Source: Escherichia phage pro147 | Direction: 5' to 3' (one strand) | Sequence record: NC_028896.1 | DNA: 32,675 bases | Part shown: one piece after another, positions 4,953-32,572 of the stretch | Position numbering within the stretch: position 1 is the stretch's first letter | Layout of the letters: every line of letters begins with the position of its first letter | Notes under the pieces: model-generated | The model's input: only the letters and a program-made list of their open reading frames with translations | Database searches by the model: none | What the model was told of the DNA's origin: nothing | Translations under genes and position numbers: made by a program

Positions 4953-5008
4953 GGTTTTCTCACTTCTTAATCAGGGTTAACCGGTCAGCCAGGCTGACCG
5001 GATGAAAA

Positions 5009-5527
5009 TCACAGGCCGATATTGCGGCGGTGTTGCTCCAGCCGGTCGACGCCGTTCACCTTCTCAATCATGTTGATGGTGTCGATTTCGACCAGCTCCT
5101 TACCGTCCATCGTCAGCCGGAAATAGGTGCAGACCACGGAGATTTTCGACTCGGTGTCTTCTCCCTGTTTACCCTCGCCGGTGTCGATTTCTTTCTGACG
5201 TCCACGCATGACCACCTCGACGGCCACCGTTTCGCCGGTATCGTCGCGCTGGTAAGAGCCTGCAAAACGAATCGGCACGGCATCCACACCGGTTGCGGCG
5301 TAAAGCTCCCAGATAACCGAATCCGGGAAGCCACCCAGCGACCACTCCATTGACAGCGCATCGTCATCAAGGCCGAGGTCTACCGGTGCGCTGCCGTTCA
5401 TCCCCGCACCGCGATAGTTTTCGAGCTTACGGGTCAGTTTTGGCAGCGTGACGGACTTTGCAACGCCCTGATAGCTGTAGCCGTTCAGAAAGACGTTCAT
5501 TAACTTGAGTTTGCGCGGCATTGCCAT
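5009..5527 (-). CDS. FII: Tail tube protein FII, 172 aa
   Basis: 172-aa ORF directly downstream of the sheath gene; length and position match P2 gpFII. Confidence 0.9.
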   Translation of the reverse strand: MAMPRKLKLMNVFLNGYSYQGVAKSVTLPKLTRKLENYRGAGMNGSAPVDLGLDDDALSMEWSLGGFPDSVIWELYAATGVDAVPIRFAGSYQRDDTGETVAVEVVMRGRQKEIDTGEGKQGEDTESKISVVCTYFRLTMDGKELVEIDTINMIEKVNGVDRLEQHRRNIGL

Positions 5528-5539
5528 CGGTCAGGCTCC

Positions 5540-6730: not shown

Positions 6731-6834
6731 CCGTTTAACTCCGTGGTTCATGGGTGCAACTATTTTCTGTTGTGCAGAGCATGAGACGCTATTTGACCTG
6801 GCTGGTCAGTGGATGAAACAACAGATAAAGAAAA

Positions 6835-6853
6835 GGCGGGCAATCCGCCCGCC
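6835..6853. terminator. GC-rich hairpin between the FI start and the cargo gene; likely terminator/insulator
   Basis: 7-bp stem ggcgggc (6835-6841) / gcccgcc (6847-6853), loop aatcc; A-rich run to the left (T-run on the minus strand after the stem). Confidence 0.5.
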
Positions 6854-6989
6854 TGTCCTGATTTGAACTTACTCATTTTCCGACTGACAATTTACATAGC
6901 CAAAACACTATCATTTCCCTGACGTTAAGTTGTATCTTTGATAGGATTAAAAAATGTATAGATAGCTTATACTACTGAGGGAACAAAAA

Positions 6990-7799
6990 ATGACGCAAAT
7001 TAGTGAACGATGGAAGCACAACGGCATTACTAAAGGTTATTGCAATATTTGTGGAAAATATGACCTCCTCACAAAAGATCATGTTCCTCCAAAGTGTGCC
7101 ATAACCTTAGGTCCTGTTCTTCAGAAAACAGTTAGCGAATTTTTTGGTGTTCAGGAACCAGTTAAACCATTAAATGCTAAAAACGGCTCTTATTTCAAAA
7201 CCATTTGCAGCCACTGTAACAATAAGGTGTTAGGTGGACTCGACGTTGCAATTGAAAATGTAGCAAAGTCCTTTAAAGAACAGTTGAGTCAATATATGAA
7301 TGGTATGAGTGTATTTCCATTCATTAGAATACCTTTTGATAGCATATCTTTCACTAAGGCTATGATTGGACACGTGCTATCGGCAACTTCAGTTGAAGAT
7401 TGTAAAAAAGAACCCGTAGATAGCCCCTTCTATACACCTTTAAAAGATTATGTTTTGGGTAAGAATCCAAGTTTTGAGGAGACTCATGATATTTACTACT
7501 GGTTTTACCCACACAGAATGCACATATCAGCTCAAAGTGTAGCATTTATGAACGAAGGACATGTAGCATTTATTTGTGCTTTACATTTTTTTCCTATCGG
7601 TTTTATTATCACAATTAAAAATGAAGGAATATACCCTGCACACTCAACAAAATTAGAGCTTAAAGATAAATTCCTTACATTTAACATGACATCTGTAAAT
7701 TATGAGTATACGACATTTCCATTTGTAAATCTTAAGGGAAACCAAATGTATGCTATAAGCAACGGCCATACATGTGTGAGTTATCCAATAATTAAGTGA
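6990..7799 (+). CDS. Hypothetical 269-aa protein with N-terminal HNH-nuclease-like motif, in the P2 Z/fun cargo position; candidate anti-phage / superinfection-exclusion protein
   Basis: AT-rich ORF on the strand opposite all flanking late genes; ATG at 6990 preceded by GAGGGA. Motif string CNICGK...KDHVPPK...N...CSHCNN resembles the CxxC / DH / N / CxxC signature of HNH endonucleases. The C-terminal ~180 aa were not recognised. Confidence 0.6.
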   Translation: MTQISERWKHNGITKGYCNICGKYDLLTKDHVPPKCAITLGPVLQKTVSEFFGVQEPVKPLNAKNGSYFKTICSHCNNKVLGGLDVAIENVAKSFKEQLSQYMNGMSVFPFIRIPFDSISFTKAMIGHVLSATSVEDCKKEPVDSPFYTPLKDYVLGKNPSFEETHDIYYWFYPHRMHISAQSVAFMNEGHVAFICALHFFPIGFIITIKNEGIYPAHSTKLELKDKFLTFNMTSVNYEYTTFPFVNLKGNQMYAISNGHTCVSYPIIK

Positions 7800-7853
7800 C
7801 TGCTAGATCATAAAATCGACGCAAGTTCACTTTCTACATATACCATCTATAAT

Positions 7854-7877
7854 GTCCGCTCTTGGCACAGAGCGGAC
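7854..7877. terminator. Hairpin between the convergent cargo gene and tail fiber assembly gene G
   Basis: Perfect 9-bp stem gtccgctct (7854-7862) / agagcggac (7869-7877), loop tggcac; sits in the 127-bp gap between two convergent stop codons. Confidence 0.55.
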
Positions 7878-7926
7878 TGTCAGATTAGGCTTTACTCTAT
7901 GCAATAGATATGTAAGCTCATACAAC

Positions 7927-8457
7927 TTATTGCGGCATTTCCGGCCATTCAGGATTTGCAGGATCCACACGGCTGACCAGAACGCTGTAGCGTTCCCATG
8001 CTTCCAGTCGTGTGCGCTCCTCGTCTGTTGCCATATTCAGCCTGACAGCGCGTTCCAGCGGCTGGATGACTGATTCAGCTTCGGAAAGCAATGCGGCCTT
8101 TTGTAATTCGGCCTGTTGTTGCTGTTCGTCTGCCGTATAAATCCGTTTAACTACAGCTCCATCCTTAAACATCCACTTACCGGAATCATCAGCGCGGCGG
8201 TTGGCTGTAATATCGGAAACCTCAACGACGCTAAAACCTTCAGGGTTAAGCGTGGAGGCATCTTTAGTGATGGCGACAATAATATTATTCTCGTCATAAA
8301 GAATTTTTATTGTGTCTTCCTGAAAGTTCTTTAATTCCTCGTACCAGTTTTTACCGTCTTCGGACCATAACCAGATAACATCAAAATTCTTTGTTAGCTG
8401 GTATTGTTCGACAGTTTTAGGGTTTCCAGACTTAATATTTTTTAAATGCTGCATCAT
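7927..8457 (-). CDS. G: Tail fiber assembly protein G, 176 aa
   Basis: 176-aa ORF immediately downstream of the tail fiber gene; position and length match P2 gpG. Confidence 0.85.
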
Positions 8458-18341: not shown

Positions 18342-19196
18342 TCAGCAGTTCGTCATCAGGGCGTCACCGCCACCACCGGTGGCCTTGCTGCGGCGCTGCT
18401 GGGTCAGACTTTCGGTGTGGTCGAGACTGTTTTTCAGGCGGGTGAATGCCTGGCTGGTTTCATCCGCCCTGTCAGTCACCTCCTGCTTAAGTGCAGAAAA
18501 GGCGGTTTCCATCTCAGCGAGGCGCTGCTCAGTGGCGCTCAGTTTTTCCTGCACATGTTCAGCAACAGCGGTCACCGCTTCATGCACGTCATTCAGACGG
18601 GCGTCATCGCTGGCCTGTTTGCGGCCAAAAATGGATTTCACCTTTTCGGTCAGGGCGGTGAACACGGTTTCAGGCAGGTCTTCAAATTCCAGCTCAACGG
18701 GCGTTGCCACTGAAATCAGGTTTTCAGGGCTTAATTTGAAGCGGTTCAGAGGGTTGTGTTTTGCCGTGCGGCAGAATTCCAGGTATTCCGTGCCGAGGCT
18801 TGCCGGGTCATCGGTGACGGCCAGCCCCACCAGATAACATTTGCCGGTGTTGGCAAAGTTCGGCTGAATTTCCATTGAGGTATAGACCTTCTGCGCGGCC
18901 TTGTTCATCGCGATAAGGTCATCGGTCGGGGTGATTTTCGCAAACAGCGCCCATTTGCCTTTCAGCGCCGAATCATCGTCAATCTTTTCGGCCTTCAGTT
19001 CGGCCACATCGCCATAACGTTTAAAAATACCGTCAGGCAGGATGCCGCGCAGATGTTCCAGGTTAATGCGGCAACCATAGACTCGCGGGTCAAAGGTTTC
19101 GGCCATTTCCTGAATATCCTGCGCACTGATGACACGCCCGTCACAGGTGTCACCCTCAACGCCGATACGAAAGAATTTTGAGACTTTTTTTGCCAT
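18342..19196 (-). CDS. O: Capsid scaffolding protein O, 284 aa
   Basis: Translation from internal start MAKKVSKFFRIGVEGDTCDGRV... gives 284 aa as in P2 gpO; the track ORF carries 22 extra N-terminal residues. Confidence 0.9.
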   Translation of the reverse strand: MAKKVSKFFRIGVEGDTCDGRVISAQDIQEMAETFDPRVYGCRINLEHLRGILPDGIFKRYGDVAELKAEKIDDDSALKGKWALFAKITPTDDLIAMNKAAQKVYTSMEIQPNFANTGKCYLVGLAVTDDPASLGTEYLEFCRTAKHNPLNRFKLSPENLISVATPVELEFEDLPETVFTALTEKVKSIFGRKQASDDARLNDVHEAVTAVAEHVQEKLSATEQRLAEMETAFSALKQEVTDRADETSQAFTRLKNSLDHTESLTQQRRSKATGGGGDALMTNC

Positions 19197-19369
19197 TGTC
19201 AGGAGTCCTGAATAGTGATTAGAGGAGTCACATGTCGGCATCAGTTTCCCGACGATACGCATCCTCCGCCATCAGTCCCGGATGGCTTATCACTGACACA
19301 ACAGCACCTTAGCGAATCGCGGGGCGCGACTCAGTAGCCTTGCCGTGTATTCATCACGGCGAGGTATTC
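19197..19369. promoter_or_regulatory. Divergent late promoter region between O and P (expected Ogr-dependent promoters)
   Basis: 173-bp intergenic region between the divergently transcribed scaffold and terminase genes. Assigned by synteny with P2; no confident Ogr box could be picked out by eye. Confidence 0.45.
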
Positions 19370-21142
19370 ATGACCATCACCACAGACACCACTCTTTTAC
19401 ACGACCCGCGTCGTCAGGCGGCGCTGCTGTACTGGCAGGGGTTTTCCGTGCCGCAGATTGCCGCCATGTTGCAGATGAAACGCCCGACGGTGCAGAGCTG
19501 GAAACAGCGCGACGGCTGGGACAGCGTTGCCCCCATCAGCCGTGTCGAAATGAGTCTGGAAGCGCGGCTGACCCAGCTCATCATCAAACCGCAGAAAACC
19601 GGCGGTGACTTCAAGGAAATTGACCTGCTGGGACGTCAGATTGAACGACTGGCACGGGTCAACCGCTACAGTCAGACCGGCAACGAGGCAGACCTTAATC
19701 CGAACGTCGCTAACCGCAACAAAGGCGGGCGTCGCAAACCGAAAAAGAATTTTTTCAGTGACGAGGCCATCGAAAAGCTGGAGCAGATTTTCTTTGAGCA
19801 GTCTTTCGAATATCAGTTGCACTGGTATCGCGCCGGGCTTGAGCACCGCATCCGCGATATCCTGAAATCCCGCCAGATTGGCGCGACGTTTTATTTTTCC
19901 CGCGAGGCGCTGCTGCGCGCCCTGAAAACCGGTCATAACCAGATTTTTCTGTCGGCCAGTAAAACGCAGGCGTATGTGTTCCGCGAATACATCATCGCCT
20001 TTGCCCGGCTGGTTGACGTTGACCTGACCGGTGACCCGATTGTCCTGGGCAATAACGGCGCAAAACTGATTTTTCTCGGCACCAACTCCAACACCGCACA
20101 GAGCCATAACGGCGACCTGTACGTCGACGAGATTTTCTGGATCCCGAATTTTCAGGTACTGCGTAAGGTGGCATCAGGTATGGCCTCACAGAGTCACCTG
20201 CGCTCGACCTATTTCTCCACCCCGTCCACGCTGGCGCACGACGCCTACCCGTTCTGGTCGGGTGAACTGTTCAACCGGGGACGCGCCAGCGCCGCCGAAC
20301 GCGTGGAAATCGACGTCAGTCATAACGCCCTTGCCGGAGGTCTTCTCTGTGCGGACGGCCAGTGGCGGCAGATTGTCACCATTGAGGACGCCCTGAAAGG
20401 CGGCTGCACGCTGTTCGACATTGAGCAGCTCAAACGTGAAAACAGCGCCGACGATTTTAAAAACCTGTTCATGTGTGAATTTGTTGACGACAAGGCGTCG
20501 GTGTTCCCGTTCGAGGAGCTGCAACGTTGCATGGTCGACACGCTGGAAGAATGGGAAGACTATGCGCCGTTTGCCGCAAATCCGTTCGGCTCCCGCCCGG
20601 TATGGATTGGTTACGACCCGTCACACCGTGGCGACAGCGCCGGATGCGTGGTACTGGCACCGCCGGTGGTGGCCGGTGGCAAATTCAGAATACTTGAGCG
20701 TCACCAGTGGAAAGGCATGGACTTTGCCACCCAGGCGGAATCCATCCGCAAACTCACCGAAAAATATAACGTTGAATACATCGGGATTGATGCCACCGGC
20801 CTCGGTGTCGGCGTGTTCCAGCTCGTGCGCTCGTTCTATCCCGCCGCGCGCGATATCCGCTACACGCCGGAAATGAAAACCGCAATGGTGCTCAAGGCAA
20901 AAGACGTTATCCGCCGTGGCTGTCTGGAATATGACGTCAGCGCCACCGACATCACCAGCTCGTTTATGGCTATCCGCAAGACCATGACCAGCAGCGGACG
21001 CAGCGCCACCTATGAGGCCAGCCGCAGCGAGGAAGCCAGCCACGCCGATCTCGCCTGGGCGACTATGCACGCCCTGTTAAATGAGCCACTCACCGCCGGT
21101 ATCAGCACCCCGCTGACATCCACCATTCTGGAGTTTTACTGA
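19370..21142 (+). CDS. P: Terminase ATPase (large) subunit P, 590 aa
   Basis: Translation from the ATG at 19370 (preceded by GAGGT) gives 590 aa starting MTITTDTTLLHDP...; divergent from O as in P2. Confidence 0.92.
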   Translation: MTITTDTTLLHDPRRQAALLYWQGFSVPQIAAMLQMKRPTVQSWKQRDGWDSVAPISRVEMSLEARLTQLIIKPQKTGGDFKEIDLLGRQIERLARVNRYSQTGNEADLNPNVANRNKGGRRKPKKNFFSDEAIEKLEQIFFEQSFEYQLHWYRAGLEHRIRDILKSRQIGATFYFSREALLRALKTGHNQIFLSASKTQAYVFREYIIAFARLVDVDLTGDPIVLGNNGAKLIFLGTNSNTAQSHNGDLYVDEIFWIPNFQVLRKVASGMASQSHLRSTYFSTPSTLAHDAYPFWSGELFNRGRASAAERVEIDVSHNALAGGLLCADGQWRQIVTIEDALKGGCTLFDIEQLKRENSADDFKNLFMCEFVDDKASVFPFEELQRCMVDTLEEWEDYAPFAANPFGSRPVWIGYDPSHRGDSAGCVVLAPPVVAGGKFRILERHQWKGMDFATQAESIRKLTEKYNVEYIGIDATGLGVGVFQLVRSFYPAARDIRYTPEMKTAMVLKAKDVIRRGCLEYDVSATDITSSFMAIRKTMTSSGRSATYEASRSEEASHADLAWATMHALLNEPLTAGISTPLTSTILEFY

Positions 21143-22161
21143 TGAGTAAGAAAAAAGGGAAAACACCGCAGCCAGCGGTGAAAACAATGACTGCCAGCGC
21201 CCCGAAAATGGAGGCATTCACCTTTGGTGAGCCGGTGCCGGTACTCGACCGCCGTGATATTCTGGATTACGTCGAGTGCATCAGTAACGGCAGATGGTAT
21301 GAGCCACCGGTCAGCTTTACCGGTCTGGCAAAAAGCCTGCGTGCTGCCGTGCATCACAGCTCACCGATTTACGTTAAACGCAATATTCTGGCTTCAACGT
21401 TTATCCCGCACCCGTGGCTGTCCCAGCAGGATTTCAGCCGCTTTGTGCTGGATTTTCTGGTGTTCGGTAATGCGTTTCTGGAAAAGCGTTACAGCACCAC
21501 CGGTAAGGTCATCAGACTGGAAACCTCACCGGCAAAATATACCCGCCGTGGCGTGGAGGAGGATGTTTACTGGTGGGTGCCGTCCTTCAACGAGCCGACA
21601 GCCTTCGCGCCCGGCTCCGTGTTTCACCTGCTGGAGCCGGATATCAATCAGGAGCTGTACGGCCTGCCGGAATATCTCAGCGCCCTTAACTCTGCCTGGC
21701 TGAATGAGTCGGCCACGCTGTTCCGCCGCAAGTATTACGAAAACGGCGCTCATGCCGGATACATCATGTATGTCACCGATGCCGTGCAGGATCGCAACGA
21801 TATCGAAATGCTTCGCGAAAACATGGTTAAGTCGAAAGGCCGCAACAACTTTAAAAACCTGTTTCTCTATGCCCCACAGGGGAAAGCCGACGGCATTAAA
21901 ATTATCCCCCTCAGTGAAGTGGCGACGAAGGACGATTTTTTTAATATCAAAAAAGTCAGCGCCGCAGATCTCCTGGACGCACACCGCATCCCCTTTCAGT
22001 TGATGGGCGGTAAGCCGGAGAATGTCGGGTCACTAGGAGATATTGAAAAAGTGGCAAAGGTCTTTGTCCGCAATGAACTCATTCCATTACAGGAGAGAAT
22101 AAAGTCAATAAATGAATGGTTAGATATGGAAGTAATAAAATTCCTTGATTATAACTTATAA
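21142..22161 (+). CDS. Q: Portal protein Q, 339 aa (3' end AT-rich and apparently remodelled)
   Basis: 339-aa ORF overlapping the P stop (TGATG); position matches P2 gpQ. The last ~25 codons (22081-22161) are abruptly AT-rich, continuous with the downstream cargo island. Confidence 0.88.
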   Translation: MSKKKGKTPQPAVKTMTASAPKMEAFTFGEPVPVLDRRDILDYVECISNGRWYEPPVSFTGLAKSLRAAVHHSSPIYVKRNILASTFIPHPWLSQQDFSRFVLDFLVFGNAFLEKRYSTTGKVIRLETSPAKYTRRGVEEDVYWWVPSFNEPTAFAPGSVFHLLEPDINQELYGLPEYLSALNSAWLNESATLFRRKYYENGAHAGYIMYVTDAVQDRNDIEMLRENMVKSKGRNNFKNLFLYAPQGKADGIKIIPLSEVATKDDFFNIKKVSAADLLDAHRIPFQLMGGKPENVGSLGDIEKVAKVFVRNELIPLQERIKSINEWLDMEVIKFLDYNL

Positions 22162-22173
22162 GTAAATATATAA

Positions 22174-22200
22174 AGTTGGCGGAATGCAATCCCGCCAACT
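22174..22200. terminator. Hairpin between convergent Q and the retron-operon effector gene
   Basis: Perfect 9-bp stem agttggcgg (22174-22182) / ccgccaact (22192-22200) with 9-nt loop, filling the 42-bp gap between two convergent stop codons. Confidence 0.6.
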
Positions 22201-22203
22201 TAA

Positions 22204-22911
22204 CTATATATACTTCCTTTTTACTCTACTTAATTCTATCACTGATGAGGAGTGACAAAATGACAAATTAATAGTATCGATATAATCCAAAATTTGACTC
22301 TCAACCTCAATAAAAATATTTTTGGGCCCATTACTAATCGATATACCGATTTCATCCAAAACAGCCATCATTTTTCTCTGATGAGTTTTATATTTATAGT
22401 CTTTATTTTCCTCTGTAATATGTGCATTGGCTTCCTCAATAACACATTTGATTCTAGATATTATTTCTAGATAATCTCTCGAAACAGATATATCACCGCC
22501 TTGCGCTTCAGGGAACATAACCCTATACCATCTAAAAAAATTAACTTTCTCTGGATAGATGCTACTTCTTTTAGTTAACTCAGCACTTGCAAATTCTCTA
22601 AACATCGTCAGATGACTAGTGTAATTACTATTATTATTATTTTTAACTCCAGCGTTATATGTCATCAAAGCAATCATAACACCAAAAACGGTAACAAAAG
22701 TTGTTATAAGCCATCCAAACGCCTGAAAATACATTACTATACCAGATGTTTTTTCCGCAAAAAATTTTAAGCACTGGCTATCGAAGCATATATCACGCTC
22801 ATATAGCTTTTCATTCTGAATAGTTTCAAAAAGAGAAATTAGCGAAAAAATCAAAAAAAGAGCTGACGACACACCGACAATATATTTGAGAAGTCTAATA
22901 TTTGCATTCAT
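22204..22911 (-). CDS. Putative retron effector: 235-aa protein with two N-terminal transmembrane helices
   Basis: AT-rich ORF overlapping the 3' end of the upstream reverse-transcriptase gene by 4 nt. Hydrophobic segments YIVGVSSALFLIFSLISLF and VMYFQAFGWLITTFVTVFGVMIALMTY, followed by a ~140-aa soluble C-terminal domain. Confidence 0.7.
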   Translation of the reverse strand: MNANIRLLKYIVGVSSALFLIFSLISLFETIQNEKLYERDICFDSQCLKFFAEKTSGIVMYFQAFGWLITTFVTVFGVMIALMTYNAGVKNNNNSNYTSHLTMFREFASAELTKRSSIYPEKVNFFRWYRVMFPEAQGGDISVSRDYLEIISRIKCVIEEANAHITEENKDYKYKTHQRKMMAVLDEIGISISNGPKNIFIEVESQILDYIDTINLSFCHSSSVIELSRVKRKYI

Positions 22912-24182
22912 AATGGTTTTAAAGATGCCAATCTAGATTTAAAACACTCCAGTTTTTCTTTAAATGATTCAGAGCGAGTAAGAATAATCATCTTATATCT
23001 CGTCAAATCATATTTTCTTTTATACCAATGTTTATTTTGATTACCTTTCGAATACGACAACTCTAAACTTTTTATAGCTGCATCAATCACAGCAACATCT
23101 CTTTTAGATGGCATCGGTTTTATTGCCTGCAACTGTTTCTTGAATGATTCATATTTTTCATGCGCAACACGGCCAAGCTTATTCACTCTCCCCATACATC
23201 TATTGAATTCTTTTCTGTATGCAACACTTGTTTTTGTGTTATTTTTTGCCGCCAGTAATTTCAAATTATGTATAGATGCCCTGATTCTTTTGACTTCATC
23301 GGATGGTAGTCGAGGTGAGTCATAGTCAACTCTTAAACCATGTACTTTTATAGGTTCAGATGAACAGTGAAATATTTTAGTTTTGCGCTTATTTATCGGC
23401 AAGTCATGCTCAGAAAGCATCCTCTCTATATGGCTTTGCATTTGAGAAAAATCATAATTACTTATTTTAGATGACACGGTAATATCATCTACCAAACGCG
23501 TATAAACAAGTCCTTTCCTCTGCGCACGTCTTACCACATCCCCTTCAACAGCGAATAAACACAAAGTTGCTATATAGCTTGATGTTAAGGCCCCCTGTAC
23601 GACAAAATCATCCTTAGTACATATATCCACCAAGTATTCAAGAGCCTCATCCTTAATATGCAATATCTCCTCAAACACGCTCCTAACCAGATCTCTATGG
23701 ATATTATCGAAAAAATTACTTATATCCACCTTGAGAACTGTTTTTGCTCCACAATGAGCCTTTGCACATGAAACATAGTCACGTTTGACATTAGAATTTA
23801 AAACATCATTTTTACTGGGAACTGAACCAAACAAAAATGAAGGAAAAACAACCAATTCCTTAAAGATACGTTTATTAATTCTACTCTGTAATAATCTCAT
23901 TTTAGGATGCAGGGAGTAGACAATCCGTTTGCTTCCGTCAATTTTGGGAATTTCTTTTAGAGTATATTTCTCATCTAATGGTAATTCTGCAATAGCTTTA
24001 AGCTCTTCAACAGAAATCGATAAAGCCTTTGACAACTTTTCAAGTGTTGTGATAGGAGCATTGGATTTGCTGTATGGTTTAAATTTATCCATAAACATAC
24101 CATTCAAATTCAAAGTTACGTACGGTCTTCCCATACTCAAGGGTGGAACAGCAGAGATGCTTACATCAACAATTGTCAGCAA
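22908..24182 (-). CDS. Retron-type reverse transcriptase (start uncertain: TTG 24182, ATG 24134 or ATG 24098)
   Basis: Translation shows the RT motifs ...CAKAHCGAKTVLKVDISNFFDNI..., ...QGALTSSYIATLCL..., ...YTRLVDDITV... (YxDD box) and a VHGL motif resembling the retron VTG signature. AT-rich; the TTG at 24180-24182 is preceded by AGAGG. Confidence 0.8.
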   Translation of the reverse strand: MLTIVDVSISAVPPLSMGRPYVTLNLNGMFMDKFKPYSKSNAPITTLEKLSKALSISVEELKAIAELPLDEKYTLKEIPKIDGSKRIVYSLHPKMRLLQSRINKRIFKELVVFPSFLFGSVPSKNDVLNSNVKRDYVSCAKAHCGAKTVLKVDISNFFDNIHRDLVRSVFEEILHIKDEALEYLVDICTKDDFVVQGALTSSYIATLCLFAVEGDVVRRAQRKGLVYTRLVDDITVSSKISNYDFSQMQSHIERMLSEHDLPINKRKTKIFHCSSEPIKVHGLRVDYDSPRLPSDEVKRIRASIHNLKLLAAKNNTKTSVAYRKEFNRCMGRVNKLGRVAHEKYESFKKQLQAIKPMPSKRDVAVIDAAIKSLELSYSKGNQNKHWYKRKYDLTRYKMIILTRSESFKEKLECFKSRLASLKPL

Positions 24183-24423
24183 CAGCCTCTGCTATCTTTC
24201 GACCGTACGTAATGTCGTCGGCTACGGCACCATCGTAGTTGACGACGGTGGGGCCTCGCTGATAGGTCCATAGTGGACGCTTTTTTGTAAAAGCAAAAAC
24301 TGACAATTTAATGTTGTTGACTGCCGCATACCAAGCGAATCGCTGGTGCGCTAAGAATAATGCAACAAAAAAATAAGAATTTCAACCGGGTAACTGCAAG
24401 CCAGCGACATCGTTTAGCGCGCA
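24183..24423 (-). ncRNA. Candidate retron non-coding RNA (msr/msd) in the structured leader upstream of the RT gene
   Basis: GC-rich non-coding stretch between cos and the RT with a nested hairpin gtcgtc-gg-ctacg-gcaccat-cgtag-tt-gacgac (24214-24246) and a 12-nt inverted repeat ttacgtacggtc (24116-24127) / gaccgtacgtaa (24201-24212). Exact msr/msd boundaries could not be determined. Confidence 0.3.
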
Positions 24424-24442
24424 GTGCTTTCCCCGCCTCGCC
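24424..24442 (-). other. cos: Phage cos site: 19-nt cohesive-end sequence GGCGAGGCGGGGAAAGCAC (minus-strand sense)
   Basis: Plus strand 24424-24442 reads gtgctttccccgcctcgcc, the reverse complement of the P2 cohesive end as recalled; followed by ...ctgcgcgct as at the P2 left end. Adjacent GC hairpin ccgccc (24442-24447) / gggcgg (24456-24461) plus tttt. Confidence 0.75.
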
Positions 24443-24648
24443 CGCCCGCTTCATGGGGCGGTTTTAATGCAGTAGCATGACCACTCAACTAGCGCGCCAG
24501 TCCTGATGTCGCCAGGCAGTTATTGTTCTCTGACTTGCGTGCGCTTCGATGCAGAGTAATGCACTTCCTGAATTGCTCGCATTCGCATCGTTATCATGAT
24601 AGAAAACAGGTAGTTATTTGTGCGCAACTTAAGAAGAAATCACTAATT

Positions 24649-26193
24649 ATGAAAAAGATTTATGAATTAACTACTGGTAGAGCGCTTAAGTATTTTCTGC
24701 AGCATGATTCATACACTACTCTGGAGCTACCCAGTTATGTCGATTTTTCTTCCTTGCTTGAAGAAATCAACTCCGCGATAGATGAAGGTAAAATCAACTT
24801 CCAACCTGACTCCAAGTCATTGATGGGGAAGAATATAAATTACGAGGTTTTAGTCAGCAAAGATGGCTTATATAGCTGGCGACGAATAACACTAATTAAT
24901 CCTCTGTACTACGTGTATTTTTGTAAACTTATTACATCCCCTTCCAACTGGAAGGCTATAAAGAATAAATTTAGAGAGTTTGAGTCTAATGATCTTTTTT
25001 TATGCTCAAGTACCCCAGTGAGCAAAAAGAACACCTCAAACGTAGCTGCATCTGTTTTAAACTGGTGGGAAGATTTTGAACAAAAAAGTCTTTCATTGGC
25101 TCTTGAGTATGAGTTCATGTTCAGCACAGATATTTCAAACTTCTACCCTTCTATTTACACTCATAGCTTTGAATGGGTATTCATCTCAAAAGAAGAGGCC
25201 AAAAAGAAAGAAAATAACAATAACCCAGGACGATTGATTGACACTCATATCCAGATGATGATGAGTAATCAGACAAACGGAATACCATTGGGTAGTACGT
25301 TGATGGATACATTTGCCGAATTAATTTTAGGCGAAATTGATTTACAGCTAAGAAAAAAAACTGAAGAGCAAAAAATAACGGATTACAAAGTAGTTCGCTA
25401 CAGAGATGATTATCGAATATTTTCAAGCAGTAAAGATGATTTGGACAAAATCTCAAAGTGTTTGGTTGAGGTCTTAGGTGAGTTTGGGCTTGATTTAAAC
25501 TCAAGAAAAACAGAACTACATGACGACATCATTCTTCACTCTCTTAAATCAGCAAAAAAAGAATATATTATAGAAAGGTCGTTCAACTCCCTACAGAAAA
25601 TGTTGTATGCAATATATTTATTTTCTTTAAAACATCAAAACTCCAAAATTACAGTTAGATATTTAAATGATTTCTTGCGAAAATTATTTAGGAAGAAAAA
25701 GATCACAAATAGTGGGCATCAACTAGATGCAATGCTTGGAATTATTTCAAGCATCATGGCTAAAAACCCAACCACCTACCCAGTGGGAATGGCTATTTTC
25801 GCAAAACTCTTGACCTTCCTTTATGACGACGATGAACTCAAATTTGGCAAGTTACAACAACTTCATTGTAAACTAGGTAAACAACCAAATACTGAAATGT
25901 TAGATATTTGGTTTCAACGAGTTCAAGGGAAGATACACACACAATGGGAAGGCGATTACAAAACAGCCCTATGTCAACGCATAAATGATGAACTCAAGGG
26001 AAAAAAAACATTTACCATTGATGGCCTGTGGGATGTAGAGTGGATTCCGGGCTCAGCCAAAAGTAAAAACAAACAGAAAATACTATCAATTTTGAAAAAA
26101 ACAAAAATTGTGGATTTAGATGCATTCGAAGAAATGGATAATGATATTACACCAGAAGAAGTGAACTTATTCGACAAGGAACACAGCGCTTAA
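24649..26193 (+). CDS. Abi-P2-like (Abi/UG-class) reverse transcriptase, single-gene anti-phage system, 514 aa (alternative start ATG 24559)
   Basis: AT-rich ORF in the tin/old cargo position. RT motifs ...FSTDISNFYPSIYTH..., ...NGIPLGSTLMDTFAEL..., ...VVRYRDDYRIFS..., followed by a long C-terminal extension with no recognisable effector domain. No adjacent partner gene. Confidence 0.75.
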   Translation: MKKIYELTTGRALKYFLQHDSYTTLELPSYVDFSSLLEEINSAIDEGKINFQPDSKSLMGKNINYEVLVSKDGLYSWRRITLINPLYYVYFCKLITSPSNWKAIKNKFREFESNDLFLCSSTPVSKKNTSNVAASVLNWWEDFEQKSLSLALEYEFMFSTDISNFYPSIYTHSFEWVFISKEEAKKKENNNNPGRLIDTHIQMMMSNQTNGIPLGSTLMDTFAELILGEIDLQLRKKTEEQKITDYKVVRYRDDYRIFSSSKDDLDKISKCLVEVLGEFGLDLNSRKTELHDDIILHSLKSAKKEYIIERSFNSLQKMLYAIYLFSLKHQNSKITVRYLNDFLRKLFRKKKITNSGHQLDAMLGIISSIMAKNPTTYPVGMAIFAKLLTFLYDDDELKFGKLQQLHCKLGKQPNTEMLDIWFQRVQGKIHTQWEGDYKTALCQRINDELKGKKTFTIDGLWDVEWIPGSAKSKNKQKILSILKKTKIVDLDAFEEMDNDITPEEVNLFDKEHSA

Positions 26194-26293
26194 CGAAACA
26201 ATGTTATTAACTCAACATGACTTCGTTAAGCATTAAAGCGAACAGTCATATGAAATTTCGACATCCCTAACGCCTCGCAAGCTCGTTGTTCAC

Positions 26294-26338
26294 CCCCGCC
26301 AGCACTGAAAGCGAGTTTCAGCGTCGACGGGGTTTTCT
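26294..26338 (+). terminator. Possible intrinsic terminator downstream of the Abi-P2-like RT gene
   Basis: Composite hairpin: outer ccccg (26294-26298) / cgggg (26328-26332), inner ctgaaa (26305-26310) / tttcag (26316-26321), followed by ttttct. Confidence 0.35.
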
Positions 26339-26358
26339 ATGGTCAACGTGGTGACAGA

Positions 26359-26619
26359 TTATGGGCACGCGTGAAGGTAGAAATATGGACGGTTGGGATT
26401 ATTGATTTCTCCCATACGGCTGCAGTTATCACTGACGATCTCAGTCCCTCCGACCAACTCGTAGAGGGTCAGATTCTCTTTGACCATAATTTGTAAACAA
26501 TAGCCATCAGCCGCAGACTCTTGCACGAGTACAATGGCGGAACCGGACGCATAGCTAGTAATGTATGCATTAGTCATAATGACATGCTTCCAAAGCAAGA
26601 TCGCCACGCAGTTCCGCAT
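26359..26619 (-). CDS. Hypothetical 86-aa protein downstream of A (position of P2 orf91)
   Basis: ORF in the track only; sits where P2 carries orf91 but no sequence similarity could be verified from memory. Confidence 0.3.
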   Translation of the reverse strand: MRNCVAILLWKHVIMTNAYITSYASGSAIVLVQESAADGYCLQIMVKENLTLYELVGGTEIVSDNCSRMGEINNPNRPYFYLHACP

Positions 26620-26680
26620 GATCCATCAGTTGCTGATACCAACCATCAAATGGAAGCAAAATCAACCATTTCAATCATTT

Positions 26681-28957
26681 TTATATGTTTGTTGAGAATC
26701 CCGGCCACTCATCAGCGACCGGATACGTGAATTTTTCCCCGTCATAATTTACGGTCGCGCCACGCGCCAGCGCCTCAAGCTCCCATCGCTGTGGCCTGAT
26801 ACCGTTCTGAGCAAGGTCAACGCGGATACGGGTAATTTGCATTCGTTCCGACCGGGTCAGTCTGGCCGATGGCGCTATTTCATGCGGTTTTAACGGGCTT
26901 CCGTTTCTTTGCTGACGGTTTGGTCTTCTCAGACCGTGTTTTAATGCACCTCTGAGCGCCCTCACGACCTCCTGGTCATTCCATTCGATAACACCGTCAT
27001 CTACCAGATTAAGCACTGCTGCGGCGTGCTCAGAAGGTGTGGGAGCCGGTAACGAAGTATCACCACCGGTGAGCTTTCCACAGTTATTGACAGGACTCCG
27101 AGGCGCGGCGATGCCGCTTTTTAAAGTCAAAGGCTCAACGACCAGCACTTTCGGAACAATGCGCCAGTCCGTCGTTCTGGTGATATGAATATGACGCGCG
27201 CCGAGATGCGGCGCGTAAATGCCGACCACTCTCTCGACTTCTTCCTCGTACTCGTTAACTTCATCCGACGGACTACGGGCGACCCTGACAGTCTGACAAT
27301 CGCGCGGGACATTTGCCCCACCCTGCGCGCTGATATACAGCGCAAAATCGCCACTGTCTGCGGCAGCGCGTGCAGCCTCGACGCGTTCGTCAAACTCATC
27401 AGCAATGCTGACGCCGCGAGGTAATTTGCGTAGTTCACGGTAAGCCCCCATTGTCGGCAGGCCAACCGTTTTAAATTGCGGAATGCGCCACGTTGACGCC
27501 CATGCGGTAACAGCCGCGGCAGTGTCTTTCAGCGGCCTGCCGGTATCGTTATCGAGCTGACCATCCAGTGCATAGCCGTCGATGTTTTTTGAAATGTATT
27601 TCGCGATATACCCCGCAGCACCGCCCCGGTTAAGGTGTTTTGCCTGAAAACGGTTTCGCGCGGCTCCTCTTTCGTCGCCATCCTCTTTGAGCGCATAGCG
27701 ACGCATGATTTCGATAATCTGGTTACGCTGGCGCGGATTACAAAAAAGCATCATATGCCAGTGCGGCGTTCCGTCGTGGTGTGGCTCGACGACACGCAAA
27801 CCGTAGACCTGTAAATCATTATCCTTGAATGCCGTGCGCATCAGGCTCCAGATACGGCAGAGATAACGCTGCGCATCCTTTGGATTAAATGCCTCATCGT
27901 TCCAGCCGTGATTTAGCTGGACGGTTTTACTTTCGCCTTTTCTGACCTGACGTGTCGGGTGATACTTTGACGGCGCGGTCAGCGTGATAAACATCCCCAC
28001 ATCACCCTCTGCTGCGGCGTAACGCTCAATACCGGCAATGGTGTTCATCAGCTCCATCCGGCGAATTTCAGGATTAGAAATACTGCCCATCACCTTACTG
28101 ATAAGGTCGATGCGCTCGCCGGTTTCCCTGTTTTCAAGGTCACACGATTTAAGAAATTCCAGATTTGCCTGGCGGCGCGCACGCACATCACGAATGGCAT
28201 GTTTACTGGCATAAGGAGAACGGTCTTTATTGACCTCCCCGACAGCTATCAGTAACGCCTCATGCCAGCGCATACGTTGGCCTTTAAGCTGATGAGTCCA
28301 CCACTCATCGTTAAACAGGCGGGCAATGGCAGAATATGCCTGCCTCGTGGTCATCTGTCCTTTACGGTATTTTTTCCAGTAGAGCGGGGAAATATTGAAA
28401 GCACGTGCAGCGCCAGCAACATGACCATAGAGGTGAGCCTGCGCCTCATCCGTAAACAGCGATTCTTTTTCGCCATGTGCATCAACCCAGGCATCGCAGA
28501 GTTCCTCATACATCATGAAAAGCTGCGATGAGATACGGGCAGCAAACTTTTTCAGCTCCTTGTCATTCATTCCCGGCAGGCGCGCATAGTGGTCACGCTC
28601 TGCCAGAAACAGCAACGACGCGTCGGTGTTCATTTCATGGCGCTGATTCACACGCTCAATGCGCGGCCATAAACGACGCTGAAAAGTGGATGTGAGGAAA
28701 TAAAACCCGTGCACCGGGCTTTTATTGCGCCGGATGTAGTCATAACGTGAAGTAAACAGCGAGCGCAAAAAGTAAGGCAGGCGGTTAATCGTGGATAAAA
28801 CACCTTGCACCTGACGCATCTCGTCACGTGTAAGGGGTCTTTCGCGCCCGACAGCCTCGCGTGGCGCGTTCCATGCATAAGCACCGGTAAACGTCTTACC
28901 GGTGCCTGCGGCAAATGCTGACGGAGGGACAAAACGCCCGGAGGCTTTAACGGCCAT
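26681..28957 (-). CDS. A: Replication initiation protein A (rolling-circle nickase), about 758 aa from ATG 28957
   Basis: Translation from MAVKASGRFVPPSAFAAGTGK... matches the recalled P2 gpA N-terminus. The track ORF starts 14 codons upstream at a TTG (28999). The last few codons lie at the boundary with the cargo island. Confidence 0.9.
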   Translation of the reverse strand: MAVKASGRFVPPSAFAAGTGKTFTGAYAWNAPREAVGRERPLTRDEMRQVQGVLSTINRLPYFLRSLFTSRYDYIRRNKSPVHGFYFLTSTFQRRLWPRIERVNQRHEMNTDASLLFLAERDHYARLPGMNDKELKKFAARISSQLFMMYEELCDAWVDAHGEKESLFTDEAQAHLYGHVAGAARAFNISPLYWKKYRKGQMTTRQAYSAIARLFNDEWWTHQLKGQRMRWHEALLIAVGEVNKDRSPYASKHAIRDVRARRQANLEFLKSCDLENRETGERIDLISKVMGSISNPEIRRMELMNTIAGIERYAAAEGDVGMFITLTAPSKYHPTRQVRKGESKTVQLNHGWNDEAFNPKDAQRYLCRIWSLMRTAFKDNDLQVYGLRVVEPHHDGTPHWHMMLFCNPRQRNQIIEIMRRYALKEDGDERGAARNRFQAKHLNRGGAAGYIAKYISKNIDGYALDGQLDNDTGRPLKDTAAAVTAWASTWRIPQFKTVGLPTMGAYRELRKLPRGVSIADEFDERVEAARAAADSGDFALYISAQGGANVPRDCQTVRVARSPSDEVNEYEEEVERVVGIYAPHLGARHIHITRTTDWRIVPKVLVVEPLTLKSGIAAPRSPVNNCGKLTGGDTSLPAPTPSEHAAAVLNLVDDGVIEWNDQEVVRALRGALKHGLRRPNRQQRNGSPLKPHEIAPSARLTRSERMQITRIRVDLAQNGIRPQRWELEALARGATVNYDGEKFTYPVADEWPGFSTNI

Positions 28958-29222
28958 ATGAGCCAAAAGCCTCTGAACAACGCCTGCTGAGTTGCTCAAC
29001 CTGCGCGTTTAAATCAGCAAAAGACTTTGCGCTTCCGGTCAGAATATCGTGATGCATCAGGCCGGAAACGAGCTGGCTTAATTTCGGGTAATAACCAACC
29101 ACCGCCAGCCATTCCTGACCGGCGTTTTTACCGCTTTCCGCTCTCTTTTTCTCGTGGAGAATAAACTGAAAGCTGTCACTGGTAACGACATAACGTTTGC
29201 CAATTTCAATACGAATGCTCAT
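28947..29222 (-). CDS. Early-operon hypothetical protein (P2 orf83 position), 91 aa
   Basis: ATG-initiated ORF immediately upstream of A, overlapping its start by 11 nt; syntenic with P2 orf83. Confidence 0.7.
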   Translation of the reverse strand: MSIRIEIGKRYVVTSDSFQFILHEKKRAESGKNAGQEWLAVVGYYPKLSQLVSGLMHHDILTGSAKSFADLNAQVEQLSRRCSEAFGSYGR

Positions 29223-30032: not shown

Positions 30033-30533
30033 TTAATGCAGATATTGCTCTGGTTTTACCGACGTCAGAATTGTCGGTGCATACTCAAACAGACTGAATA
30101 ATTCACGTAATGCACGGAATAAAGCATCACGCCAGTAACATGATTCTTCATTAATTCGCCAGTATGGCTGGTTAAATTCTTTTTCAGTCAATCCGGCATG
30201 CATAAATAAAGTACGGCGCTGACTGACTGTTAAAAAACTAATATATGCATACTCACTTGCGCCAACCTGACGGCGTTTTGAGAATGCGCCACGCAATTCA
30301 TCAATTGCACATACCAGTCGTTCACGTTCGACGTCGTTCATTTCTTCAAAACGCATCGTTGCGTGACGCTGTTTTAACTGCGCATGGAAGCAAACCGTTA
30401 GCCGTTCACGTTCCATCATCTGATTATAATAATCGCATGTCTCCTGCCAGCGAGGGACGGCCAGATGCTTACCAATTATCCGGCGCATAGCTGCTGGCTG
30501 TTTTTCAACAAGATTGAGCGTCATCACTGTCAT
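30033..30533 (-). CDS. B: Replication protein B (helicase loader), 166 aa
   Basis: 166-aa ORF; length and position match P2 gpB. Confidence 0.88.
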   Translation of the reverse strand: MTVMTLNLVEKQPAAMRRIIGKHLAVPRWQETCDYYNQMMERERLTVCFHAQLKQRHATMRFEEMNDVERERLVCAIDELRGAFSKRRQVGASEYAYISFLTVSQRRTLFMHAGLTEKEFNQPYWRINEESCYWRDALFRALRELFSLFEYAPTILTSVKPEQYLH

Positions 30534-31576: not shown

Positions 31577-32572
31577 ATGTCTATTAAAAAGCTCGATGAT
31601 GGTCGTTATGAAGTGGACGTCAGACCGCAGGGTGCAGATGGAAAACGTATCAGGCGGAAATTTAAAACTAAAGGTGAAGCTCAAGCATTCGAACGTCATG
31701 TGCTGGTTAACTACCACAACAAAGAGTGGCTGGAGAAGCCAGCCGACCGCCGAACTCTTACAGAGTTGTTAGGCAGATGGTGGATATATCACGGAAAATC
31801 ACATGAGCGTGGAAATATTGAACGGGGGCGTTTGACGACAATAATCGCCAAATTTGCAGAAATGGGAGTGTCCAGAGCTGACCAGTTAACAAAGAAAACG
31901 ATAACTGATTATCGAGTTGTAATGATGAACGATGGTCTAAAACCAGCCAGCGTAAATCGGCATCTGGCAATAATGAGCGGGATGTTCACCAAGTTAATTG
32001 ACGCCGGTGAATACCACTCTCACAACCCGTTCCGTGAGGTTAAGCGGTTACGTGAAGCTGTTACAGAAATGGCTTTTTTGTCCAGTGAAGAGATTACGCG
32101 GCTGTTATCCATGCTTGATGGTGATGAGTTAAATGCAACTCTGGTCTGCCTTTCTACTGGTGGACGCTGGAGTGAAGTGTCTAATTTGAAAGCTGAACAC
32201 ATCATTAACCAGATGGTTACGTTTATGAAAACTAAAAACGGAAAGCGCAGGACAATTCCCGTTTCGCAGGACCTGATTAAAAGGATCAAGACCAAAAATT
32301 CAGGCAGGCTTTTTAATGCCAGTTACTACAAAGTGCGTAACGCTCTCAGGGAAGTAAAACCCGATTTACCTGACGGACAAGCAGTACATGTTTTGAGGCA
32401 TACATTTGCCACACATTTTATAATGAATGGAGGTAACATAATCACATTGCAGCGCATCCTGGGTCATTCTAACATTCAGCAAACTATGACCTACGCACAC
32501 TTTGCACCGGATTTCTTACAAGATGCTGTGACTCTTAACCCAGTGTCAGGAATGTCCATAATGCGTCCATAA
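31577..32572 (+). CDS. int: Tyrosine integrase, 331 aa
   Basis: Terminal gene next to the right repeat; C-terminal catalytic region contains ...RHTFATHFIMNGGNIITLQRILGHSNIQQTMTYAHF... (R...HxxR...Y tyrosine recombinase pattern). Confidence 0.92.
   Translation: MSIKKLDDGRYEVDVRPQGADGKRIRRKFKTKGEAQAFERHVLVNYHNKEWLEKPADRRTLTELLGRWWIYHGKSHERGNIERGRLTTIIAKFAEMGVSRADQLTKKTITDYRVVMMNDGLKPASVNRHLAIMSGMFTKLIDAGEYHSHNPFREVKRLREAVTEMAFLSSEEITRLLSMLDGDELNATLVCLSTGGRWSEVSNLKAEHIINQMVTFMKTKNGKRRTIPVSQDLIKRIKTKNSGRLFNASYYKVRNALREVKPDLPDGQAVHVLRHTFATHFIMNGGNIITLQRILGHSNIQQTMTYAHFAPDFLQDAVTLNPVSGMSIMRP

Follow-up and report, generated by a model that had tools for sequence, protein, structure and literature searches.

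The presence of two reverse transcriptases (RTs) on either side of the packaging site cos of Escherichia phage pro147 (NC_028896.1) raises the question of whether they form one system or are separate defences, and of how they came to lie together. We analysed the whole record, a stretch of 32,675 nucleotides (the window), and compared this region with other P2-like loci. In our main reading, to which we give a probability of about 0.9, it represents the variable region next to cos in what appears to be a complete P2-like E. coli prophage, with two independently exchangeable slots separated by a 63-bp cos core. What we observed in its favour are the identities of the genes, their intactness, the anatomy of the two units, the boundaries of the cassettes, and their mix-and-match distribution across genomes.

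A variable island between genes Q and A

The windowed GC content is 0.32-0.38 over positions 22001-26000 and 0.53-0.58 (about 0.55) in the flanks, i.e., the locus is an AT-rich island in a GC-rich genome, as a preliminary description of this DNA had proposed. It climbs locally to 0.46 at 24001-24500, which corresponds to the retron noncoding RNA (ncRNA) and the cos site. The comparison with P2-like phages delimits a variable island of ~4.6 kb, from 22101 to ~26690: the match to P2 and its relatives ends at position 22100, and similarity to other P2-like phages restarts at ~26690-26697, within the 3' end of gene A. The sole interruption of this island is the conserved cos core. The region has the characteristics of the cos-proximal cargo hotspot of P2-like phages, with an AT-rich variable content that lies between conserved Q and A genes, adjoins cos, and differs among close prophages. 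The flanks, the cos core, and the minor elements are the following:

21142..22100, plus strand: conserved portion of the portal gene Q, bordering the hotspot on the left (94-96% DNA identity to P2 and relatives)
22101..22161, plus strand: tail of Q, last ~20 codons, in an AT-rich replacement ending in ERIKSINEWLDMEVIKFLDYNL and the stop; left recombination junction of the Q-side slot
22173..22201, no strand assigned: terminator-like hairpin (13 bp, GC-containing) located where the stops of Q and of the retron effector converge (terminator scan)
24416..24478, no strand assigned: conserved cos core, 63 bp (8 nt, the 19-nt cohesive-end sequence at 24424-24442, and 36 nt)
26194..26690, no strand assigned: remainder of the A-side cassette, with a small minus-strand open reading frame (ORF) and a 186-like segment
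26267-26341, no strand assigned: 75-bp segment that is 87% identical to positions 30337-30412 of phage 186, at the right end of that phage
26359-26577, minus strand: small ORF, 72 aa from M15 (phrog_13272, unknown function, 1.9e-54)
26681..28999, minus strand: replication gene A, bordering the hotspot on the right (identical RefSeq loci carry the annotation "replication endonuclease")

Judging from these sequences, the AT-rich version of the Q tail travels with the retron cassette, and the left recombination junction lies within Q. The 19-nt cohesive-end sequence of P2 (GGCGAGGCGGGGAAAGCAC) has a single exact match, at 24424-24442 on the minus strand, and none of 100 shuffles matched. The 36-nt part of the core includes a GC hairpin (24442-24461). 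Between Q and A, nothing but this core is common to other P2-like loci (95-97% identity), and it fits the 55-bp cos core of Ziermann & Calendar as cited in PMC5694545.

The retron unit lies to the left of cos on the minus strand and the Abi-P2 unit to the right on the plus strand. The two are transcribed divergently with cos between them, as first described, although some of the gene starts had to be corrected (see below). Because cos lies between the two units, the geometry places them at opposite ends of the packaged genome, if the prophage packages. The preliminary description suggested that they might then be the last and first DNA to enter a new host.

A type IV retron to the left of cos

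The left unit consists of the following elements, all on the minus strand:

22204..22911, minus strand: retron Ec48-family two-transmembrane (2TM) effector, 235 aa, whose start overlaps the stop of the RT by 4 nt
22908..24092, minus strand: type IV retron RT, 394 aa, of the Retron-Eco6/Ec48 type (PADLOC RT_IV, Pfam RVT_1)
24116..24350, minus strand: retron ncRNA, msr-msd region (covariation, a2/a1 pairing, folding)
24357..24385, minus strand: sigma-70-like candidate promoter of the retron (TTGAAA and CATTAT, 17 nt apart; consensus scan)

The RT matches the PADLOC model RT_IV at 1.4e-176 over model positions 2-385 of 386, with RT_V as the runner-up (1e-62), and Pfam RVT_1 at 5e-31. Its closest solved relatives are the RTs of the retrons Ec86, Kva2, and Ec67. 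The translation keeps the catalytic motif LVDD and has regions X and Y in the Eco6 variants, where CAKAH replaces NAXXH and VHG replaces VTG; residues C109, A110, H113, H251, and G252 are invariant in our alignment. RT-Eco6 has exactly these two substitutions, according to PMC6868368. A start at TTG 24182 was rejected in favour of ATG 24092, which agrees with the RefSeq annotation.

The effector matches PADLOC 2TM_IV (4.1e-85), passes the NCBIfam equivalog NF038235 ("retron Ec48 family effector membrane protein"; 226.7 bits for a cut-off of 65), and has two hydrophobic segments (residues ~5-32 and ~58-86). It is identical to protein 2 of the "Type IV retron" in Table S5B of Rousset 2022 (PMC9122126). 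The segment 24357..24385 may serve as the promoter of the unit: 39 bp separate it from the cohesive-end sequence, all of it is on the Q arm, and its placement fits the 5' boundary of the ncRNA conserved in the alignment. By all the tests available, the left unit is, as judged from its sequence, a complete type IV retron of the Retron-Eco6/Ec48 type.

The ncRNA of the retron

The predicted structure of the ncRNA includes:

~24338-24326, minus strand: 5' hairpin, followed by two small hairpins
24321-24314 and 24306-24300, minus strand: a2, pairing with a1
24180-24165, minus strand: a1, pairing with a2
24212-24201 with 24127-24116, minus strand: two-tier 3' stem, with GCAGAG facing CTCTGC (folding and alignment)

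When the upstream regions of 25 type IV retrons are aligned, compensatory changes appear in 30 of the 35 predicted pairs, and the a2 segment terminates in a conserved G. Across these 25 retrons, the a2/a1 duplex has a mean energy of -19.8 kcal/mol between cognate segments and of -10.6 (sd 3.9) between noncognate ones; in 18 of them, the top-ranked partner is the cognate one. For the 3' domain, the folding energy is -41.8 kcal/mol (z -5.7). Folded as a single sequence, the complete intergenic region gives no significant structure (z -1.1 and -1.9). Searching Rfam with the entire window at E <= 1 gave no match; the database has no curated model for type IV retron RNA. The msDNA of Ec48 is a branched molecule of 48 nt, primed from the 2'-OH of a conserved G. 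The branch point and the limits of msd in the present retron are predictions.

An inverted-repeat scan had offered two other a2/a1 candidates, 24349-24341 with 24235-24227 and 24410-24399 with 24223-24212. Both were dropped because they are not conserved in the 25-sequence alignment, unlike the pairing of 24321-24300 with 24180-24165, which covaries. Under the second of them, the retron promoter would lie across cos, and expression could take place from joined ends only.

Abi-P2 to the right of cos

The right unit has one large gene, the only one in the A-side cassette, which sits between cos and A:

24479..24648, plus strand: leader of Abi-P2, presumed promoter region, cassette-specific, starting 37 bp from the cohesive-end sequence
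24649..26193, plus strand: Abi-P2 RT, 514 aa, P2-EC58 allele (PADLOC AbiP2, PDB 7R08)

The protein matches PADLOC AbiP2 at 4.7e-160 (runner-up Drt6, 4e-47), so that both RTs have the identities first given to them. The alignment with the solved structure 7R08 is end to end (residues 1-508, E 6.8e-258), and the active site of the protein is intact, with the motif YRDD in VRYRDDYRIF aligned with the same residues of 7R08. The locus has 99.5% DNA identity to P2-EC58 (AM157368), and the sequence is that of "RT-Abi-P2", system 16 in Table S5B of Rousset 2022 (PMC9122126). The structure 7R08 appears to be that of the other, EC30-like allele: the present protein has 75% amino acid identity to an EC30-type allele of another locus (L001), itself close to the 7R08 sequence. 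A start at 24523 was rejected, the actual start being ATG 24649. The leader is identical in P2-EC58 and in a locus carrying Abi-P2 only (L003), and it is missing from other P2-like loci. The consensus scan found no consensus promoter for Abi-P2. In PMC11077055, Abi-P2 is associated with protein-primed, template-independent DNA synthesis and with phage exclusion.

The two RTs had been called unrelated in the preliminary description. They do belong to different lineages, but both are members of the RT superfamily, and their palm regions are 21% identical (E 4e-4). One of them might be a decayed remnant, leaving a single active system. We found nothing in favour of this and regard it as extremely improbable: both ORFs are full length relative to their family models, both keep their catalytic aspartates (LVDD and YRDD), and both genes are 99-100% conserved over dozens of genomes. 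The absence of pseudogenes, previously assessed by eye, is in agreement with these alignments.

The two cassettes combine with different partners

Among the 5426 complete E. coli genomes that we surveyed, 57 have the retron and 64 the EC58-type allele of Abi-P2; the two are contiguous in 42. The retron cassette is 99.6-100% identical between loci, and it faces five different states across cos:

Retron opposite EC58-type Abi-P2: the arrangement of this prophage
Retron opposite EC30-type Abi-P2: L001
Retron opposite a DUF7380 protein: L002, L159, L160
Retron opposite an AAA ATPase: L158
Retron opposite no annotated gene: L155-157

Conversely, L003 has an EC58-type Abi-P2 and an empty Q side, with only ~170 bp from Q to cos. 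Either system occurs alone, with 12 retron genomes lacking any Abi-P2 and ~30 Abi-P2 genomes lacking the retron. A single multi-component RT system was therefore rejected: the units are divergent, separated by cos, and each occurs without the other. The modular stacking suggested at the outset is thus borne out, and the distribution indicates that the retron and Abi-P2 are independent single-locus defences in separately exchangeable slots, Q-cos and cos-A.

The pairing itself is frequent. Some allele of Abi-P2 lies across cos in 45 of the 57 retron carriers (79%), a count of raw genomes that is uncorrected for phylogeny, where ~2 would be expected under free assortment among the ~2139 genomes with a P2/P4-type cos region. 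Hence, the pairing is not unusual for this retron, contrary to the initial claim. The neighbourhood was already in print (PMC8934634) and tabulated (PMC9122126, Table S5A). This co-occurrence exceeds pure independence, and it could reflect either the shared descent of one prophage lineage or selection. If the two systems, instead of being independent passengers, had been selected together as a functional pair, through synergy or mutual dependence, this would explain why Abi-P2 faces 79% of the Ec48 carriers and does so as two alleles 25% apart in protein sequence, opposite near-identical retrons (99.8-99.9%). Cooperation might then arise from covered escape routes or from a shared dependence on the host's processing of DNA ends. 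Yet, both genes sit in a single prophage at a distance of 4 kb, where linkage plus clonal spread would suffice without selection, and either system is found without the other. In addition, the RecBCD inhibitor Gam sets off Retron-Eco6 expressed alone (bioRxiv 10.1101/2025.10.22.683967), Abi-P2 is listed as a single-gene system (PMC9122126), and PADLOC, NCBIfam, and the table of Rousset (PMC9122126) class the two separately. We consider mutual dependence or synergy unlikely, and a pairing that is selected and not merely linked just as improbable; the reading of two independent, exchangeable cassettes is preferred.

Cargo in the Q-side and A-side slots of other P2-like loci

We sampled 100 P2-like loci from IMG/VR for their content between the Q stop and cos. 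The distance is 156-185 bp in 84 of them, and 14 carry AT-rich cargo of 1.5-3.7 kb, including RT_UG36, an RT-Toprim type I-C retron, AriA/OLD-like and other AAA ATPases, PDC-M38A, and PDC-S02. The last 60 nt of Q have a GC content of 0.27-0.43 in 12 of the 14 cargo loci versus 0.40-0.60 in cargo-free ones, and of 0.23-0.25 in cassettes of the type found in the window. Q stops early in most of the cargo loci with AT-rich Q ends.

The orientation of the cargo bears on whether the placement at the ends of the packaged genome is itself functional, e.g., by allowing expression from the entering linear DNA before circularisation. Each unit is complete on its own arm, with the retron promoter candidate and the Abi-P2 leader only 39 and 37 bp from the cohesive-end sequence, and the genes point away from cos in 12 of the 14 loci with Q-side cargo. 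However, A-side cargo is found in both orientations (the DUF7380 gene points towards cos), cargo of the P4 hotspot is also reported in either orientation (PMC9122126), and the published account of the location, in the discussion of PMC9122126 and in PMC5694545, invokes cohesive-end recombination and tolerance to insertions. A functional role of the ends is pure inference, and we deem it very unlikely.

Relation to known systems

The A-cos slot has reportedly been known since Odegrip 2006. The slot between cosL and Q goes back to Dodd & Egan 1996 and the retrons Ec67 and Ec86, as relayed in PMC6868368 and PMC5694545, where these retrons take the place of ~180 bp between cos and the packaging-gene terminator in a 186-related prophage. 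The present locus is alike in that the retron replaces the ~169 bp found between the Q stop and cos in cargo-free loci, and in that a terminator-like hairpin directly follows Q; an RT-Toprim (Ec67-type) retron occupies the same Q-side slot in another locus (L028). It differs in the type of retron (IV here, II-A for Ec86, I-C for Ec67) and, unlike in the Ec67/Ec86 insertions, the replacement extends into the last ~20 codons of Q.

Rousset 2022 (PMC9122126) described the P2 hotspot between gpA and gpQ as adjoining cos and often holding more than one system, and tabulated both systems (Table S5B, systems 16 and 22) and the same three-gene arrangement (Table S5A). It is the same locus, treated there as one hotspot from A to Q and resolved here into two slots around the 63-bp core. 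Sharifi & Ye 2021 also noted (PMC8934634) an Abi-P2 RT (P2-EC58-type), Q, and gpA near the Ec48 retron. The left unit shares with Retron-Eco6/Ec48 (Mao 1997; Millman 2020; Mestre 2020) the RT clade, the motif variants, the 2TM effector, and the upstream ncRNA; we detected no difference, the branch G and msd limits entering this comparison as predictions. Abi-P2 of P2-EC58 and P2-EC30 (Odegrip 2006; 7R08) has the same cos-A position as a single gene, and the EC58 allele found here shows no difference. Hence, both systems, both cargo slots, and their exact pairing were already published: the finding is real and ordinary.

In P2 itself, the A-side slot holds the exclusion genes old and tin, whose proteins and mechanisms are unrelated to the cargo described here; neither gene is in this window. 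The exclusion of lambda by Old requires lambda functions, among them Gam, the RecBCD inhibitor that also triggers Retron-Eco6. Because Gam is common to both, different cargo of the hotspot may watch the same host function.

Proposed assembly of two defences around cos

In the scenario we propose, the slot from the 3' end of Q to cos holds Retron-Eco6, made of a candidate promoter, a structured msr-msd RNA, the RT, and the two-transmembrane effector. According to the literature, from which we take the defence activities and triggers, it would act by abortive infection in response to the inhibition of RecBCD by phage proteins, lambda Gam among them. The slot from cos to the 3' end of gene A holds Abi-P2, a single-protein abortive-infection RT whose published activity is a self-primed, untemplated synthesis of DNA. 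Each cassette would have its own regulatory region and act alone, and jointly they would widen the protection that the prophage gives to its host. We infer that the arrangement arose by homologous recombination between co-resident P2-like phages, with gene Q, the cos core, and gene A as anchors.

As a discovery this carries small weight, both systems, their slots, and their neighbourhood being published. What is added is the division of the A-to-Q hotspot into two slots around the 63-bp cos core, the finding that cassettes of the Q side come with an AT-rich portal-gene end of their own, which places the left recombination junction inside Q, and a first estimate of the use of the Q-side slot (14 of 100 sampled loci). 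The association between the retron and Abi-P2 provides a cheap hypothesis for testing synergy between defences, in a locus that is the native context of the retron family serving as a model for the guarding of RecBCD.

Prophage layout

Judging by its ORF map, the window looks like a complete P2-like prophage, with these features:

First in the gene order (ORF map): late tail genes D, U, T, FII, and FI
After the late tail genes (ORF map): tail-fibre, baseplate, lysis, and capsid genes
18342-19262, minus: scaffold gene O
19340-21142: terminase gene P
21142-22161: portal gene Q
Between portal Q and replication gene A: the region under study
22173-22201: 13-bp terminator-like hairpin, between the convergent stops of Q and the effector
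22204-22911, minus: retron effector (PADLOC 2TM_IV, 4.1e-85)
22908-24092, minus: retron reverse transcriptase (RT) (PADLOC RT_IV, 1.4e-176)
24385-24357, minus: sigma-70-like promoter candidate, just upstream of the retron ncRNA
Start of the A-side cassette, before Abi-P2: 170-bp leader
24649-26193, plus: Abi-P2 (PADLOC AbiP2, 4.7e-160)
26267-26341: 75-bp segment, downstream of Abi-P2 and before gene A, with 87% identity to phage 186 (right-end region)
26359-26577, minus: small ORF of 72 aa (phrog_13272, function unknown), unannotated in RefSeq
26681-28999, minus: replication gene A
After gene A (ORF map): early genes
31577-32572: integrase

Many E. coli strains have the 4.5-kb stretch at 22162-26680 in their chromosomes, with 99.9-100% identity. 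A windowed calculation bears out the AT-rich island in a GC-rich genome reported in the preliminary description (GC of 0.32-0.38 over 22001-26000 versus 0.53-0.58 on both sides). Between tail genes FI and G, where P2 has Z/fun, there is a second AT-rich island (6800-8000, GC ~0.37) that holds a single 269-aa ORF (6990-7799, plus strand) with Cys-rich motifs (CNICGK...HVPPKC...CSHCNN). This ORF has no match in Pfam, PADLOC, or NCBIfam, its sole family being phrog_21495, of unknown function; it is a candidate for uncharacterised cargo at the second hotspot of P2. Many "complete" RefSeq E. coli chromosomes have gene A of a P2 prophage at position 1, e.g., NZ_CP060946.1 and NZ_CP086662.1 (gene A 1-2286, retron 4866-6754), presumably because rotation software takes it for the replicon start gene.

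Two cassettes flank a minimal cos core

The P2 cohesive-end sequence GGCGAGGCGGGGAAAGCAC has a single exact match, on the minus strand at 24424-24442, and shuffled sequences gave none. Between Q and A, nine other P2-like loci share two sequences with the window: the cos core, which spans 24416-24478 in eight of them and is slightly shorter (24416-24471) in the ninth (L005), and the 3' end of A, from ~26690. The A-side cassette, between cos and A, is therefore 24479-26690. Within the core, a hairpin of six GC pairs followed by TTTT (24442-24461) overlaps the first base past the cohesive-end sequence and has the form of a plus-strand terminator; it could shield Abi-P2 from transcription crossing cos or, alternatively, may be part of terminase recognition.

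On the Q side, DNA homology to P2 and its relatives ends at 22100, ~20 codons before the Q stop; these last codons (22101-22161) are AT-rich, with the Q tail still recognisable. The effector has two hydrophobic segments, scores 226.7 bits against the NCBIfam model "retron Ec48 family effector membrane protein" (cut-off 65), and overlaps the RT gene by 4 nt. The RT starts at 24092, the mechanical ORF call being too early. It has CAKAH and VHG in place of the NAXXH and VTG of most retron RTs, the two peculiarities described for RT-Eco6 (Ec48) (PMC6868368). The whole retron unit, candidate promoter included, is confined to the Q arm; a promoter spanning cos, considered at first, was dropped.

On the A side, the mechanical call was also too early: Abi-P2 starts at 24649. 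Its residues 1 to 508 align with the solved structure 7R08 (E 6.8e-258), and YRDD is kept at the active site, in agreement with the earlier reading of intact motifs. This right half is nearly identical to P2-EC58 (24457-26680, 99.5% identity to fragment AM157368). The exact cos match and the PADLOC, NCBIfam, and 7R08 matches thus uphold the description of a retron-type RT (minus) and an Abi-P2 RT (plus) diverging from cos.

A conserved structure in type IV retron RNAs

Type IV retron loci were collected from other genera (31 in total; RT identity 42-57%, with one exception), and 24 of their upstream regions were aligned with that of the window. On this alignment, the ~235 nt from ~24350 to 24116 is a conserved structured RNA: of the 35 pairs that RNAalifold gives, 30 show compensatory changes. 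A 5' segment (24321-24314 and 24306-24300) pairs at long range with a 3' segment (24180-24165), with mean energies of -19.8 kcal/mol when the partners are cognate and -10.6 (sd 3.9) when they are mismatched; 18 of 25 sequences pair best with their cognate partner. We take this putative duplex to be that of the terminal inverted repeats, a2/a1; the a2 segment ends in a conserved G. A two-tier stem with strong covariation (24116-24216, minus; z -5.7 in the window) holds the a1 repeat in its apical loop and has its 3' arms downstream of a1, just before the RT start. Hence, a2:a1 pairing is either pseudoknotted with the stem or alternative to it. For reverse transcription, the stem would have to open, and msDNA synthesis could in this way be coupled to RT translation. 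A limited literature search found no published description of this arrangement.

One system or two

The two RTs share only 21% identity, in the palm region. Among the comparison loci, the retron stands opposite an EC30-type Abi-P2 (L001), a DUF7380 protein (L002, L159, L160), or an AAA ATPase (L158), three retron loci (L155-157) have no annotated A-side gene, and L003 has Abi-P2 with a Q-to-cos gap of only 170 bp. The existence of retrons without Abi-P2 (L002, L158) and of Abi-P2 without Q-side cargo (L003) speaks against parts of one multi-component system, and the separate variation of the cassettes supports the modularity proposed earlier. By these comparisons, the two are distinct modules, each with its own slot.

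Of 5426 complete E. coli genomes, 57 have the retron cassette and 64 the window's Abi-P2 allele, with both present and contiguous in 42. Eleven have a second allele (75% protein identity), which closely resembles the 7R08 sequence, and three of these also carry the retron. Contrary to the earlier suggestion, the pairing is thus not rare: 45 of the 57 retron genomes have an Abi-P2. This arrangement had been described before. In Rousset et al. (2022, PMC9122126), the P2 hotspot is the cos-proximal stretch from gpA to gpQ, and many such hotspots have more than one system; their Table S5A repeatedly lists RVT_1, RVT_1, and a hypothetical protein (WP_001605760, WP_050516365, WP_000993280), and Table S5B gives the same sequences as in the window for "RT-Abi-P2" (system 16, 184 occurrences) and for "Type IV retron". 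Sharifi & Ye describe an AbiP2 RT, 99% identical to that of P2-EC58, beside an Ec48 retron, with Q and gpA also there (PMC8934634).

Under free assortment among the ~2139 genomes with a P2/P4-type cos region, ~2 co-occurrences are expected versus 45 observed, counts that ignore phylogeny. The excess, which involves two divergent Abi-P2 alleles, is most simply explained by physical linkage in a single successful lineage of the prophage. Selection on the pair would also account for it, but we consider this improbable.

Q-side cargo in P2-like phages

According to PMC6868368 and PMC5694545, Dodd & Egan (1996) proposed the cosL-Q position as a hotspot, ~180 bp between cos and the packaging-gene terminator being replaced by retrons Ec67 and Ec86; this matches the ~169-bp spacer and terminator-like hairpin here. 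We scanned IMG/VR with the cos 19-mer and located Q and A in each locus. Among 100 loci with Q, its stop lies 156-185 bp from cos in 84, two have a 74-aa ORF in between, and 14 have AT-rich cargo (1.5-3.7 kb, GC 0.32-0.37), including RT_UG36 with a partner, an RT-Toprim type I-C retron, PDC-M38A, PDC-S02, and AriA/OLD-like and other AAA ATPases. The lysine-rich 74-aa ORF (MDNYHITKDGDKWKLQKEG...), the sole insertion in L010 and L106, is a minimal occupant of this slot. Both sides are occupied in 3 of the 40 loci with both distances measurable, and the Q side alone in 3.

Cargo genes are oriented away from cos in 12 of the 14 loci. The final 60 nt of Q are AT-rich in 12 of 14 (GC 0.27-0.43, versus 0.40-0.60 in cargo-free loci; 0.23-0.25 in the window-type cassette), and Q ends early in most of these 12, which places the left recombination junction inside Q. 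Only 7-8 nt beside the cohesive end are conserved on the Q side of cargo loci, so cos appears to require almost nothing specific there. Most Q-side cassettes have their own AT-rich last ~20-25 Q codons (window 22101-22161; L006, L007, L009, L019, L028, L041, L094, L123), giving a shorter end without the ...DTDNG tail. Cargo exchange thus remodels the C-terminus of an essential structural protein.

Implications

At the level of gene content and alignment, the analysis shows two intact autonomous cassettes, with their own candidate regulatory regions, that flank a minimal cos core and are exchanged independently among related prophages. Swapping would proceed by homologous recombination, with Q, the cos core, and A as anchors. 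In the literature, the retron is an abortive-infection system that responds to RecBCD inhibition, and lambda Gam triggers Retron-Eco6 (bioRxiv 10.1101/2025.10.22.683967); PMC11077055 describes Abi-P2 as a DNA polymerase that primes itself, needs no template, and acts in abortive infection. From the geometry, cos cleavage would give virion DNA with the retron at its left end and Abi-P2 at its right.
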